Positions 5,417-9,367 of a stretch of DNA of 64,000 bases are shown here, in pieces. The notes under the pieces are model-generated. The model searched no databases. It saw only the letters and a program-made list of their open reading frames with translations, and was not told where the DNA came from. The position numbers and the translations under genes are program-made. The number at the start of each line of letters is the position of its first letter. The stretch's first letter is position 1. Origin of the DNA: Ignavibacteriota bacterium (lineage in GTDB: Bacteria > Bacteroidota > Ignavibacteria > Ignavibacteriales > Melioribacteraceae); contig JAZDFQ010000098.1 in NCBI GenBank assembly GCA_043807765.1, forward strand, positions 19,349 through 83,348, written 5' to 3'.

Positions 5417-6058
5417 ATGAAAAGTGTGTTAACATTTTTAGTTGTGGTTCTTTGCTTTGCAAGTATTAGTCGTGCGGATGATGAAAAGTACATTGCGGCA
5501 ATGAAGAAAAATATGATTCAAATGGATTCTATGAAAACTGTAAATGATATGGTTGATCTTACAAATGCCTTTTTAAGAATTGCCAATGCCGAAAAAGATA
5601 AATGGCTTCCATATTATTATGCTTCCCAGCTTAGTGTGCTTTCAAGTTTTACCGATTCGGTTAACAGCAAGAAAGATGAATATTTAGATGAAGCTGTAAA
5701 ATTTCTTGCTATTGCCGATTCTCTCCAGCCGAATGAATCTGAGATTTATGTTCTAAAAGGATTCATCTGTCAAGCCCGTCTTCAAGTTGATCCGATGAGC
5801 AGATATATGAAATATGGTTTTCAAATGAACGAAAATTTTGAAAAGGCTATTGCGCTCGATCCTACAAATCCCCGTCCCGAATATTTGAAAGGAGTAACTT
5901 TGTTTTATACACCGGAACAATTTGGCGGCGGTGCAAAAGTTGCAAAACCTCTTTTAGAATCCGCTCTCAAAAAATTTAATGAGTTCGCTCCAAAGAATGA
6001 ATTGATGCCGCATTGGGGCAAGCAGCAAGTTGAAGATTTCTTAAAACAAATTCCGTGA
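5417..6058 (+). CDS. Secreted TPR-like helical protein, likely partner of the upstream receptor
   Basis: Signal peptide, AGGAG RBS; WLPYYYA and KAIALDPTNPRP...PEQFGGG motifs. Confidence 0.65.
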   Translation: MKSVLTFLVVVLCFASISRADDEKYIAAMKKNMIQMDSMKTVNDMVDLTNAFLRIANAEKDKWLPYYYASQLSVLSSFTDSVNSKKDEYLDEAVKFLAIADSLQPNESEIYVLKGFICQARLQVDPMSRYMKYGFQMNENFEKAIALDPTNPRPEYLKGVTLFYTPEQFGGGAKVAKPLLESALKKFNEFAPKNELMPHWGKQQVEDFLKQIP

Positions 6059-6120
6059 CATTTCTTTTGTTGACCAAGAGAAAACTTTGAACAATATTGT
6101 AATGTAAATCTGGAGTTGTT

Positions 6121-6558
6121 ATGGATCAATTTATGCAAGCAGCAATTGAAGAAGCTCAGAAAGATTTGGAAGAAGGCGGCATTCCAATCGGTTCTGTAAT
6201 TGTACACAAAGGAAAAATTTTAGGGCGTGGACATAACCGCCGTGTTCAAAAAGGAAGCGTTATTCTTCACGGTGAAATGGACGCATTTGAAAATGCCGGA
6301 AGGCAAACGGCTTCCGTTTATAAAGAATGTGTTTTGTACACAACGCTTTCGCCGTGTCCAATGTGCAGCGGCGCAATTATTCTTTATGGAATTCCCAAAG
6401 TCATCATCGGCGAGAACAAAACTTTTATGGGCGAAGAAGAACATCTTAAATCCCGCGGAGTTAATGTAGAAGTCCTTCAAGACGAAACATGCATTAACAT
6501 GATGACAAACTTCATTGCGGATAAACCAACTTTGTGGAATGAAGACATTGGTGTTTAA
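6121..6558 (+). CDS. Cytosine/nucleoside deaminase (CDA zinc fold)
   Basis: HGE zinc/catalytic motif and LSPCPMC. Confidence 0.9.
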   Translation: MDQFMQAAIEEAQKDLEEGGIPIGSVIVHKGKILGRGHNRRVQKGSVILHGEMDAFENAGRQTASVYKECVLYTTLSPCPMCSGAIILYGIPKVIIGENKTFMGEEEHLKSRGVNVEVLQDETCINMMTNFIADKPTLWNEDIGV

Positions 6559-6562
6559 CCAC

Positions 6563-6595
6563 AATAGAACGCGGATAACACAGATGACACGGATT
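6563..6595 (+). repeat. Left arm of imperfect inverted repeat (nonamer units) flanking GxxExxY gene
   Basis: AATAGAACGCGGATAACACAGATGACACGGATT; the same units occur in reverse complement at 6990-7022. Confidence 0.85.
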
Positions 6596-6609
6596 CAAGC
6601 GGATAAAAA

Positions 6610-6990
6610 ATGTTGTACGAAGATATTACAAGCCAGATAATCAAAGCATTCTATAAAGTAAACAATACTCTAGGATTTGGTTTTTTGGAAAAAGTTTATG
6701 AAAACGCTATGAAATTAGAATTGATGAATTTGGGCTTGAAAGTGGAGCAGCAAAAAAATATTCGTGTTTATTATGAAGGAAAGGAAATTGGCGATTATTA
6801 CGCCGATCTACTTGTGAATGATTGTGTAATAGTTGAATTAAAAGTGGCCGATATTTTATGTGAAGAACACGAAGCACAATTAATCAATTATTTAAAGGCA
6901 ACAAAAATTGAAGTTGGATTATTAATAAATTTTGGAAAAAAGGCCGAATTCAGGCGCAAAATATTTTCTAATGAAAATAAATCAGTGTAA
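6610..6990 (+). CDS. GxxExxY protein (PD-(D/E)XK nuclease-like fold)
   Basis: GFLEKVY motif; ADLLVNDCVIVELK; QLINYLKAT...GLLINFG. Confidence 0.95.
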   Translation: MLYEDITSQIIKAFYKVNNTLGFGFLEKVYENAMKLELMNLGLKVEQQKNIRVYYEGKEIGDYYADLLVNDCVIVELKVADILCEEHEAQLINYLKATKIEVGLLINFGKKAEFRRKIFSNENKSV

Positions 6991-7022
6991 ATCTGTGTTA
7001 TCCGCGTCATCCGTGTTCTATT
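6990..7022 (-). repeat. Right arm of imperfect inverted repeat flanking GxxExxY gene
   Basis: Reverse complement reads AATAGAACACGGATGACGCGGATAACACAGATT, the left-arm units in permuted order. Confidence 0.85.
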
Positions 7023-7039
7023 TCTTTTAGGAAATCAAA

Positions 7040-9367
7040 ATGAAGAAAACCCTTCTGCTGCTAGTTCTGTTTTTATCAACAACAATATTCTCTCAGAAAA
7101 AAACTCCTTACGATTATGTGAATCCGTTTATCGGCACAGACGATATGGGACACACATTCCCCGGCGCGGTTGTTCCGTTTGGATTGGTGCAGCTAAGTCC
7201 CGAAACGGATTCGGTTTTGTACAACAACGGCAAGTCATATAACCCAGATGTTTACAAATATTGCGCGGGTTATCAGTATGCGGATAAAACAATCGTTGGC
7301 TTTTCTCATACGCACATGAATGGAACGGGGCATTCCGACCTTGGTGATTTTTTAATAATGCCGACGGTTGGCAAGATTCAGTTTAATCCGGGAACAAAAG
7401 AAAATCCGGAGAGCGGATACAGATCTAAATTCTCGCACGAAAGAGAAAGTGCAAGACCGGGTTACTATTCTGTTCACTTAGACGAGAACAACATTGATGT
7501 TGAACTAACTGCAAGCGAACGAGTTGGATTTCACAAGTATAAATTTCCAAAGACAAGCGATGCACATATAATTCTCGATTTAACTTCCGGCATTTATAAT
7601 TACGATGGAAAAGTTGTTTGGTCATCTGTCCGTGTAGAAAACAAAACACTCATAACCGGTTTCCGCCAAACAAACGGCTGGGCTCGTACACGTTACGTTT
7701 ACTTTGCGATGGAGTTTTCAAAACCGATTAAATCATATCAGCTAAGAAATGATGAACAGAATGTTTATGGTGGATTCTGGCGAAAGTTTAATCAGAATGA
7801 AAATTTTCCGGAACGTGCCGGACACAAAGTAAAATGCGCTTTCAATTTTGAAACGGAAGAAGGTGAAACAATTTTAGTTAAAATAGCGCTAAGCGGAGTA
7901 AGCACTGCGAATGCACTCGAAAACTTGAAAGCAGAAATTCCCCATTGGAATTTTGAGAAAGTTGTTGTGCAAGCAAAGGAAAAGTGGAACATAGAACTTT
8001 CCAAAATTACTATTGAAGCCGGCGATAAGAGCAAAGAAAATTTCTACACTTCAATGTATCACGCATTTATCAATCCCAACATTTTTTCCGATGTAAACGG
8101 CGAGTACCGCGGACTTGATCAGAATATTCATAAATCAAACAAGTTTACCAACTACACAACGTTTTCGCTGTGGGATACTTACCGAGCGCTTCATCCGCTT
8201 TATACAATCATTCAACAAAAAAGAACAAGCGATATTGTAAACTCGATGATTGCTCACTACGAGCAAAGTGTTCACAAAATTCTTCCGGTATGGTCTCATT
8301 GGGCAAACGAAAACTGGTGTATGATTGGCTATCACGCAGTTCCGGTTCTTGCAGATGCGGTTATGAAAGACATTGGCGGAATTGAAGTTAACAAAGCTTT
8401 TGATGCTTGTGTTGCCAGCGCTAACTACGATGTTTACGATGGGATTGGCGCGTATAAAAAGTATGGATTCGTTCCGGAAGACTTAAGCTCTAACGCGGCT
8501 TCTAAAACCTTAGAATACGCTTACGATGATTGGACAATCTATAAGATGGCGGAGAAATTAGGAAAGAAAAAAGAAGTTAATGAATACTGGAAACGCGCCA
8601 ACAGTTTCAAAAATATTTATGATAAAGAAACACACTATATGCGCGCAAAGAAAACTGATGATAGTTTCAAAACTCCGTTCGATCCGCTCAGCGTTGCCAA
8701 TCAAGGTTACATTGAGGGCAACGCGTGGAATTATTCTCTTTATGTTCCTCAAGATGTAAAGGGATTTATTCAGCTTCTCGGTGGAAAGGAAAAACTTATT
8801 ACTTGGCTCGATTCGCTTTTCACATTTGATTTGCCGGATAAATATTTTGGCGAAAGTGAAGATGTAACCAAAGTTGGAATGATTGGAAACTATGTTCACG
8901 GAAACGAACCGTCTCATCACGTTCCCTATATGTACAACTTTGTTGGCGCTCCGTGGAAAACGCAAGAACGTATTCATCAGATTGTTAATACAATGTACAA
9001 ACCGGAGCCGCACGGACTTTGCGGCAACGATGATTGCGGACAAATGTCGGCTTGGTACATTTTCAGTGTGATGGGATTTTATCCCGTTGCGCCGGGAAGC
9101 AATGAATATGTTATTGGAAGTCCGTGTGTTGAGAAAGCTGAAATCAACTTAGAAAACGGAAAGAAGTTTAATATGTTTGCGGAAAATTTGAGCGAGAAAA
9201 ATATTTACATTAAAGAAGTTTGGTTGAATGGAAAGAAGATTGATAGAAGCTATCTAACTCACAAAGAAATTGTAAGCGGAGGCAAACTGAAATTTGTGAT
9301 GCAAAATGAACCGAACAAAAGTTGGGCCGTTGATGAAAAATCAATGCCTTATTCAATGACTAAGTAA
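7040..9367 (+). CDS. GH92 alpha-mannosidase (alpha-1,2-mannosidase family)
   Basis: YVNPFIGT, GHTFPGA, FSLWDTYRA, SKTLEYAYDDW, HGNEPSHH, GNDDCGQMSAWY. Confidence 0.95.
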   Translation: MKKTLLLLVLFLSTTIFSQKKTPYDYVNPFIGTDDMGHTFPGAVVPFGLVQLSPETDSVLYNNGKSYNPDVYKYCAGYQYADKTIVGFSHTHMNGTGHSDLGDFLIMPTVGKIQFNPGTKENPESGYRSKFSHERESARPGYYSVHLDENNIDVELTASERVGFHKYKFPKTSDAHIILDLTSGIYNYDGKVVWSSVRVENKTLITGFRQTNGWARTRYVYFAMEFSKPIKSYQLRNDEQNVYGGFWRKFNQNENFPERAGHKVKCAFNFETEEGETILVKIALSGVSTANALENLKAEIPHWNFEKVVVQAKEKWNIELSKITIEAGDKSKENFYTSMYHAFINPNIFSDVNGEYRGLDQNIHKSNKFTNYTTFSLWDTYRALHPLYTIIQQKRTSDIVNSMIAHYEQSVHKILPVWSHWANENWCMIGYHAVPVLADAVMKDIGGIEVNKAFDACVASANYDVYDGIGAYKKYGFVPEDLSSNAASKTLEYAYDDWTIYKMAEKLGKKKEVNEYWKRANSFKNIYDKETHYMRAKKTDDSFKTPFDPLSVANQGYIEGNAWNYSLYVPQDVKGFIQLLGGKEKLITWLDSLFTFDLPDKYFGESEDVTKVGMIGNYVHGNEPSHHVPYMYNFVGAPWKTQERIHQIVNTMYKPEPHGLCGNDDCGQMSAWYIFSVMGFYPVAPGSNEYVIGSPCVEKAEINLENGKKFNMFAENLSEKNIYIKEVWLNGKKIDRSYLTHKEIVSGGKLKFVMQNEPNKSWAVDEKSMPYSMTK

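Follow-up and report, generated by a model that had tools for sequence, protein, structure and literature searches.

We analysed a stretch of 64,000 nucleotides from the genome of an Ignavibacteriota bacterium (assembly GCA_043807765.1, contig JAZDFQ010000098.1, positions 19,349 to 83,348 of the forward strand; hereafter the window), in which a small gene of the GxxExxY family lies between two other genes and is enclosed by inverted arrays of short DNA units, here called arms. The gene and its arms behave as one unit across genomes, the arms are under selection, their units are specific to protein clades, and the repeats co-occur with the gene. An earlier note on this DNA, made from the letters and a list of open reading frames (ORFs), had described the arms, the two unrelated neighbours, and arm units that encode the last codons and the stop of the gene, all of which stood up to analysis.

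The arms (6563-6604 and 6981-7022) comprise 42 nt each, are 76% complementary in register and contain a perfect 17-nt arm-to-arm match at an offset of one 9-nt unit. Their local inverted-repeat score is 44, as compared with a mean of 19.9 (standard deviation 2.9, maximum 36) in 1000 shuffles and with scores of at most 31 at 307 other ORF-sized positions in the window; as it exceeds both maxima, the inverted repeat is considered real. The innermost unit of the right arm coincides with the last ORF codons, K-S-V (AAA TCA GTG), and the TAA stop at 6988-6990, and on the left side 5 nt separate the end of the array from the ATG. The deaminase stop codon lies 4 nt upstream of the left arm and 51 nt upstream of the GxxExxY ORF, the gene for a GH92 glycoside hydrolase starts 49 nt past that ORF, and all three genes are on the + strand (Table 1). 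Both neighbours were identified by Pfam matches, and the deaminase shares 87-97% amino acid identity with its counterparts in relatives, whether the cassette is present there or not. Many arm ends elsewhere show a T-run after GTTCTAT, as does the right arm here, and the T-rich spacer may be part of the element.

Table 1. Features of the GxxExxY locus and its flanks, in coordinates of the window.
Feature	Position	Strand	Description
Left-arm outer terminal motif	6563-6570	+	AATAGAAC; mirrored as GTTCTATT at 7015-7022
Left-arm unit array	6571-6604	+	GCGGAT, AACACAGAT, GACACGGAT, TCAAGCGGAT; period 9 nt, inward-pointing
GxxExxY gene	6610-6990	+	126 aa; predicted minimal RecB/Cas4-like PD-(D/E)XK nuclease
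Right arm	6981-7022	+	reverse complement: AATAGAAC, ACGGAT, GACGCGGAT, AACACAGAT, TTACACTGAT
T-rich spacer	7023-7039	+	TCTTTTAGGAAATCAAA; 17 nt, between right arm and GH92 start
Upstream flank	6121..6558	+	cytidine/deoxycytidylate (dCMP)-type deaminase; PF00383, E 4.4e-25; outside element
Downstream flank	7040..9367	+	GH92 alpha-mannosidase-family glycoside hydrolase; PF07971, E 3.9e-180, PF17678, E 1.4e-81; outside element

Arm units and their conservation

The arm units are variants of one degenerate 9-mer, RACRCRGAT, and the six in-register mismatches between the two arms are all A-G exchanges at three degenerate positions per unit. The earlier note had read the units as permuted and as a sign of active repeat shuffling. 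This is right in part only: both arms hold units of one kind, and a change of order is not supported, as A/G degeneracy suffices, and the orthologous arms in two congeners (genomes are designated by G, contigs by C and loci by L), G011 (91% DNA identity) and G003 (82%), differ by point changes without re-ordering of units. Since the differences are A/G transitions at degenerate positions, we do not accept shuffling. Based on 47 arm ends from the genome of the window, the consensus is AATAGAAC GCRGAT GACRCRGAT TWAACNGAT TTACGCNGAT; relative to it, units 2 and 3 of the left arm of the window appear swapped, which four transitions explain equally well. Across these 47 arms C.C.GAT and ATAGAAC are almost invariant, positions -1 to 5 of the terminal motif have an information content of 1.25-2.0 bits, and variation is limited to a fixed skeleton. 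Similarity of the units to DnaA boxes (TTATCCGCG vs TTATCCACA) was considered and dropped by reasoning alone, as most units and the RAG/AAT classes do not fit. The left arm of another GxxExxY cassette of this genome (C2:3610-3640) has a tiny GC-rich palindrome, CCCGCCTGCCGGACGGGCAGG, nested within its first unit, and similar mini-hairpins adjoin unit arrays elsewhere (C97:13018 and L121).

Compared with G011, each arm has 1 change in 42 positions (98% identical), with a proportion of synonymous differences (pS) of 0.22 in the ORF and 0.37-0.48 in the flanking genes. Compared with G003, the arms are 74-81% identical and the synonymous sites of the ORF are saturated (pS 0.87); in G003 the left terminal motif is ATAGACC and the right one GGTCTAT, a symmetric change in both arms. 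Judged from these comparisons, the arms are under purifying selection and conserved far beyond synonymous sites. The pS of the ORF disagrees with that of the flanks in both directions, being lower in G011 (L030; values above) and higher in G003 (L029; 0.87 vs 0.48-0.55), which hints at exchange or replacement of the cassette at a fixed site.

The encoded protein

The 126-aa product gave full-length matches to PF13366 (PDDEXK_3; E 2.4e-41, 141.2 bits against a cut-off of 22) and TIGR04256 (GxxExxY; E 5e-41, 139.7 bits against a cut-off of 35). Residues G24-F-L-E27-K-V-Y30, D66 and E76-L-K78 are invariant in 67 sequences, as is the QxxxY motif (Q90-LIN-Y94) after the ExK strand, and G22 is intact too. 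A model predicted with AlphaFold (AF2) from the 67 sequences reached a pLDDT of 94.8, and its best Foldseek matches in the PDB were Cas4 SSO0001, LHK-Exo, lambda exonuclease, the AdnAB nuclease domains and MGME1 (4ic1, 3syy, 6m9k, 7sjr, 8xa9), with E values from 7e-4 to 2e-2 and a TM-score of about 0.5 on the query. Family matches, catalytic motifs and structural neighbours agree with the PD-(D/E)XK fold that the earlier note had given as predicted for GxxExxY proteins. Direct reading of the sequence found two Cys only; the protein has no separate DNA-binding domain. The ORF is under strong purifying selection (ratio of non-synonymous to synonymous substitution rates, dN/dS, of 0.037 vs the G011 orthologue), and with D, ExK and QxxxY intact and a RecB/Cas4/lambda-exonuclease-like fold in the model, the nuclease looks active and selected.

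With 15,093 clusters at 50% identity that match at E<=1e-3, the family is large. It includes proteins of 250-270 aa with two GxxExxY domains in tandem (P0001-P0005, P0021, P0076 and P0090 of our representative library), an arrangement that points to a working form no smaller than a dimer. A sequence search of the PDB gave no match for the protein, nor did the PADLOC (defence) and PHROGs (phage) profile libraries, and Rfam at E<=1 gave nothing in the window at 6000-7600. Among the Pfam, TIGR, PADLOC and PHROGs profiles no recognised transposase was found in the cassette, PDDEXK_3 being the only Pfam match.

Unit type follows protein clade

Of about 11 GxxExxY loci in the genome of the window (5.0 Mb in 111 contigs), the 10 other than the locus described above all carry inverted arrays of 8-9-nt units at the ORF ends; so do nearly all of 28 further loci in 20 related genomes. 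A wider set of 76 loci from Bacteroidota, Ignavibacteriota, Chloroflexota, Acidobacteriota, Planctomycetota, Pseudomonadota and others gave a flank inverted repeat above the 95th percentile of the displaced-flank control in 75% of cases. Inward arrays of at least three phased GAT units were found on the left in 48 and on the right in 44 of the 76 (TAG control 0), with a spacing of 9 or 10 nt and the logo A-C-R-C-R-G-A-T.

Within the genome of the window, four 'NFGK' proteins go with CRCRGAT or AACWGAT units and the terminal ATAGAAC, and 'NFN' proteins with CGCAAAG, CACAAAG, CACAGAG or CACTAAG units. Mapped on a maximum-likelihood tree of 99 proteins, unit class required 6 changes, vs about 20 with shuffled labels (0 of 200 shuffles as low), and 4 vs 10.5 within the relatives alone. 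In these sequences unit type goes with the protein clade rather than with the host, so that one genome holds several unit types (GAT, RAG), each with its own protein clade; distant phyla have the GAT unit, and sometimes the ATAGAAC end, in common within the same protein clade at about 50% protein identity.

At 32 loci from this genome and its relatives, the upstream and the downstream neighbour are each co-directional with the GxxExxY gene in 31 cases, mostly at spacings of a few tens of nt. There is no room for a promoter between arm and ATG, and cassettes within such strings of genes presumably rely on read-through transcription. A single conserved target site of the homing-endonuclease type was not found, the cassettes being at unrelated sites. 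Plasmids or phages as vehicles were rejected, as carriage there is rare, with the family present in 8 of 72,556 plasmid records and in one archaeal virus. Plasmid pZRK30-1 of the cultured isolate Fusobacteria bacterium ZRK30 (L158, 900-1630) has a 61%-identical GxxExxY gene with one left arm and two extra copies of the right arm upstream and one right arm downstream, and this organism may offer an experimental handle. A noticeable share of copies are pseudogenes, with in-frame stops, frameshifts or truncation, that retain their arms (C59:29740-30090, C41:22599-22936 and C9:21720-21827; L054, L070, L092, L094 and L105 in the cross-phylum set).

Filled and empty sites

The site of the window is filled in G000, G011, G010 and G003, and the cassette is absent in at least 7 other genomes. 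Other hairpins occupy the spacer between the deaminase and GH92 genes elsewhere: G004 has one of the AAG type with two units, G005 a long one of AAGAT units, G013 a small one, and G006 a plain terminator hairpin together with an extra gene. In G017, which belongs to another genus, a 34-nt mini-element, ATAGACCGCGTCATCTGTGTTGTCCGTGGTCTAT (ATAGACCGCG...GGTCTAT), directly follows the deaminase stop (L033, G017:C165), and GH92 beside it is cut to its last ~50 codons, the deletion ending at the arm. No clean empty allele by which to delimit the ends of the element or a duplication was obtained at this site, the spacers of G004, G005, G013 and G006 being wholly different.

The sites of the three other GAT-type cassettes were analysed as well. 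At the first, on C99, G000, G010, G011 and G004 carry the insert, and G003, G001, G007 and G006 have a precisely empty allele, in which the genes on either side share a 4-nt stop/start overlap, ATGA or GTGA, and no hairpin is present; in the filled allele the upstream stop is kept, a new ATG is supplied, and TGA/ATCA (3-4 nt) stands on both sides of the insert. The earlier statement that no target-site duplication is evident holds at the locus of the window, which has no clean empty allele among the genomes compared, and the 3-4-nt duplication is seen at the paralogous C99 site; other sites are too diverged for such a duplication to be read. In G008 the C99 site holds a remnant that has both ends but lacks the gene. 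The C78 site is filled in six genomes, empty in two, and occupied in two more by a CACAGAG-type gene-less hairpin instead, and the C2 site occurs as filled, as a solo right arm (G012) and as empty. At C78 the TAG within the terminal AATAGAAC is the stop codon of the upstream host gene, as is probably the case at C2, and the upstream protein at C78 is longer in the filled than in the empty allele.

Based on these alignments, gene and arms come and go as one unit at operon junctions within the genus, in keeping with the discrete, mobile-like unit proposed at the outset, and array elements of different kinds have settled repeatedly at these junctions. Neither of the two genomic observations that would have told against that proposal, other GxxExxY copies devoid of arms and a locus syntenic in all relatives, was borne out. 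As a general route, homing of the ORF into hairpins already in place without a gene was considered and appears unlikely, the C99 empty allele being free of hairpins and the arms only about 70-80% alike between copies.

Dispersed arms in this and related genomes

Phased arrays of at least three units are numerous in the genome of the window: 55 of the GAT type (32+23) and 104 of the AAG type, with 0 in reversed-pattern controls. Among the 47 arm ends with AATAGAAC and units, eight belong to the four GAT-type cassettes and about 39 are orphan: about 23 stand alone as solo arms and the others form about eight gene-less hairpins, with nearly all of them in intergenic DNA. The proteins of the four cassettes are 60-71% identical and their arms differ, with no near-identical copies. 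Many arms lie between an A-run and a T-run, as bidirectional terminators do, and solo arms unable to form a stem retain the unit skeleton, including nine within the loop of an unrelated outer hairpin.

These nine GAT-type arms end in ATAGCCC and lie in an outer hairpin of 14-16 bp followed by a T-run (C14:16492, C50:14099, C59 on the - strand, C61:29498, C69:144770). The outer stems are of two types, GGCTGTCTCAAAAG... and GTAGATGTCGCATAATTA..., and the whole is a terminator-like dispersed repeat of about 110 nt; ATAGCCC arm ends are also numerous in G011 and G004.

In 25 related genomes a 21-nt arm-end pattern occurs 0-63 times per genome, with a reversed control of 0 in every one, and its count rises with that of the NFG-clade genes (Spearman 0.77). 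Arms were found in 16 of 20 gene-bearing genomes and in 0 of 5 without any GxxExxY gene. The mapping of orphan repeats suggested in the earlier note thus turned up many orphan arms that co-occur with the gene across genomes.

Two further kinds of element in this genome have unit arrays. The first is a miniature inverted-repeat transposable element (MITE) of about 145 nt with terminal inverted repeats (TIRs) ACTGAAGTTACGC...GCGTAACTTCAGT and flanking TA, present in 31 near-identical copies (e.g. C66:122317, C54:38958, C99:12896), which has in its interior a pair of AAG-type arrays, right arm then left arm; other machinery can thus move such arrays. It stands at many contig ends and breaks the assembly, no copy was seen in the window, and a diverged copy on C9 truncates a GxxExxY gene at residue ~36. 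About 30 identical AAG-type arrays at contig ends had been considered as ends of an insertion sequence (IS) with a transposase, which was rejected as they belong to this MITE without an ORF. The second kind comprises 18 genes for four-helix-bundle proteins (TIGR02436, 23S ribosomal RNA (rRNA) intervening sequence (IVS) protein family), which are likewise enclosed by inverted tandem-unit arrays, with units that differ from those of GxxExxY genes: ATTGAGA, GTAGAGT, GGATTT, TAAGAT and others (e.g. C94:52033-52356, C41:26794-27120, C66:163083-163403).

Interpretation and alternative explanations

We favour, at about even confidence, the reading that gene and arms form a semi-mobile cassette, in which the arms would be the cognate recognition arrays of the encoded RecB-like nuclease and the dispersed arms its partners. 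That the nuclease would bind or cut the arms, and may spread or maintain them as the earlier note proposed, we infer from the co-variation of units and proteins, the conservation of the arms and the co-occurrence of repeats and gene. Along the phased units the nuclease would probably work in dimers or larger oligomers, and the gene and the dispersed arms would form a nuclease-repeat partnership of the kind known for REP-associated tyrosine transposases (RAYTs) and repetitive extragenic palindromic (REP) sequences, or for Ssn nucleases and NTS repeats. The cassette may move by way of breaks that the nuclease makes at the arm ends or close by and that the host then repairs or recombines. A bolder version, which we regard as quite doubtful, would see an undescribed minimal autonomous element: an oligomeric nuclease of ~125 aa would read its own 9-10-nt units, cut at the ATAGAAC ends and drive excision and insertion of ~460 bp at stop/start junctions, leaving a 3-4-nt duplication, with gene-less arms as non-autonomous derivatives and a clade-specific unit 'code'.

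Several points weigh against the cassette reading. A nuclease alone is incapable of strand transfer, and co-variation and co-occurrence could reflect co-inheritance plus selection by another factor. The duplication at C99 concerns one site only and may be a by-product of selection that keeps stop and start. Flank identity to the same relative varies by locus (82% at one and 93% at another for G003), and because of this inconsistency gain is indistinguishable from precise loss or allelic replacement. The GAT-type cassettes and hairpins of the genome are all mutually diverged, so that no recent burst or movement is seen there, in contrast to the 31 near-identical copies of the MITE. The four-helix-bundle genes are not nuclease genes and have the same arm layout, and the architecture therefore needs no nuclease. 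Pairing of the arms as RNA is possible too, and for such a layout the one role demonstrated, in the IVS of Coxiella (PMC4990558), is at the RNA level. The function of PF13366 is given as 'Unknown' in PMC3424549, and the papers checked in a literature search by the name GxxExxY made passing mentions only.

The main rival explanation, which we consider clearly less probable, is that the cassette is an RNA-level element like the 23S rRNA IVS, in which the arms would form a long stem in the operon transcript that is cut by RNase III or insulates or stabilises the flanking cistrons; the insert would thereby be tolerated, the protein would not touch the arms, and the link of unit and clade would be due to co-inheritance. 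In the minimum-free-energy structure predicted for the 476-nt transcript the arms do pair with each other (about 30 pairs, z -4.8), and, in line with this explanation, cassettes are close to their neighbours and in the sense orientation among co-directional genes (31 of 32), although a promoter-less selfish gene would equally give the latter. The one experimentally characterised relative of the layout is the Coxiella IVS, excised by RNase III (PMC4990558), and four-helix-bundle cassettes with inverted unit arrays are common in the same genome. On the other side, the arm mismatches of 47 strong cassettes, read on the sense strand, comprise 102 G-U and 85 A-C (p 0.24), and 57% of mismatches are transversions; the lack of an excess of G-U over A-C weakens an explanation by RNA pairing. 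Furthermore, unit sequence is kept beyond complementarity across phyla at about 50% protein identity, solo arms incapable of a stem retain the skeleton, and arm counts depend on the presence of the gene. Absence of a G-U bias, the transversions, the 9-10-nt period and the skeleton of the solo arms favour a sequence-specific reading of the units, putatively by a protein, over a mere helix.

It is also conceivable, though we think it rather improbable, that the gene is a passenger, i.e. that another enzyme or the host spreads or keeps the unit-array hairpins as elements akin to REPs, MITEs or terminators, and that GxxExxY and four-helix-bundle genes merely happen to lie in their loops. For every cassette there are about 10 gene-less hairpins and arms, the TA-flanked 145-nt MITE, with AAG-type arrays in 31 near-identical copies, shows that another system can move such arrays, the same intergenic sites hold different hairpin types across species, arms bounded by A-runs and T-runs resemble bidirectional terminators, and the layout is common to two unrelated protein families. 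Yet a passenger would not be expected to have a unit type that tracks its clade across phyla, arms are absent from every gene-less genome (0 of 5), and no other candidate enzyme is linked to the GAT-type arms. As the C99 empty allele is free of hairpins, gene and arms arrived there together, unless an earlier hairpin left no trace. Lastly, a chance inverted repeat or ordinary terminator beside an unrelated small gene, to which the location between genes, behind a stop codon, and the T-rich tail would be suited, has virtually no chance of being correct, being refuted by the shuffle and window controls, by the reversed-pattern controls of 0 genome-wide and by the recurrence of the layout at essentially every paralogue and across phyla.

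If the arms are recognition sites, as the cassette reading holds, this would be the first concrete and cheap biochemical hypothesis for GxxExxY/PF13366, for which the literature searched gave no assigned function and no published account of the arm arrangement. The reading would also explain a class of intergenic phased short-repeat arrays, ~150 of them in this genome, place a third partnership, structurally unrelated, beside RAYT-REP and Ssn-NTS, and imply clade-specific DNA recognition by a 125-aa nuclease, of possible use to tool builders; under the bolder version, the family would be a natural library of programmable-looking sequence-specific nucleases. That four-helix-bundle genes have a parallel architecture points to a broader rule for the way in which small genes colonise operon junctions.

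Comparison with known systems

Cas4 and RecB nucleases (SSO0001, PDB 4ic1) are the best structural matches of the modelled protein and have the same D...ExK...QxxxY catalytic arrangement. Unlike Cas4, the GxxExxY protein has about 60% of the size (TM-score 0.5 on the query, 0.3 on the target), has two Cys and thus not the four-cysteine Fe-S cluster, and is encoded outside any CRISPR context, between a deaminase and a GH92 gene. With ISs and MITEs that have multi-site TIRs, the cassette has in common a conserved outermost motif, internal units, gene-less derivatives, filled and empty sites and one possible short duplication. It differs from ISs in having no DDE, serine, tyrosine or HUH transposase, its sole protein being a 126-aa nuclease core, and in that near-identical copies from recent transposition and consistent target-site duplications were not found.

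In the IVS of Coxiella burnetii the S23p gene, a four-helix-bundle ORF, lies within a 28-bp terminal stem with tandem GACAGAT heptamers; the element resides in rRNA helix 45, is excised by RNase III and is considered selfish (PMC4990558). As in the GxxExxY cassettes, a small ORF is in the loop of a long stem of terminal inverted repeats with tandem short units and is tolerated inside a transcription unit. The differences are that the cargo here is a predicted nuclease, that the site is between protein genes and not in a 23S rRNA helix, and that the arm mismatches are without an RNA-pairing signature.

In REP/REPIN-RAYT systems, the gene of the enzyme is inversely flanked by short repeats that are also dispersed gene-less, often as hairpin doublets, in intergenic regions; RAYTs resemble Y1/HUH transposases, and REPs are single imperfect palindromes. 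The analogy with these systems drawn in the earlier note is apt as an analogy, as the cassettes too have inverted flanking copies of a genome-dispersed repeat (47 arm ends, 8 of them at cassettes), orphan arms, and co-occurrence of repeat and gene across genomes; it does not extend to membership in the RAYT family. Here the enzyme would be a RecB/Cas4-like PD-(D/E)XK nuclease (PDDEXK_3 only) and not of the Y1/HUH type, each arm consists of a conserved terminal motif and an array of four units phased at 9-10 nt, and a genome holds several diverged GxxExxY copies, each clade with its own unit type.

Ssn proteins are GIY-YIG site-specific single-stranded DNA nucleases associated with NTS/SRM repeats, which flank the gene on both sides and are dispersed in hundreds of copies (PMC11893778); repeat-rich genomes have the gene, and cleavage of the repeats and a role in transformation have been demonstrated (PMC11893778). 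The GxxExxY gene is likewise flanked on both sides by its repeat, arm counts track genes (Spearman 0.77), and no arms occur in gene-less genomes. It differs in its predicted PD-(D/E)XK fold as opposed to GIY-YIG and in its phased unit arrays as opposed to the hairpin-motif SRMs, and the syntenic presence and absence suggest that the GxxExxY gene moves together with its arms. By analogy, the cassette would work like the RAYT-REP or Ssn-NTS systems while belonging to neither, as fold and repeat type differ from both.

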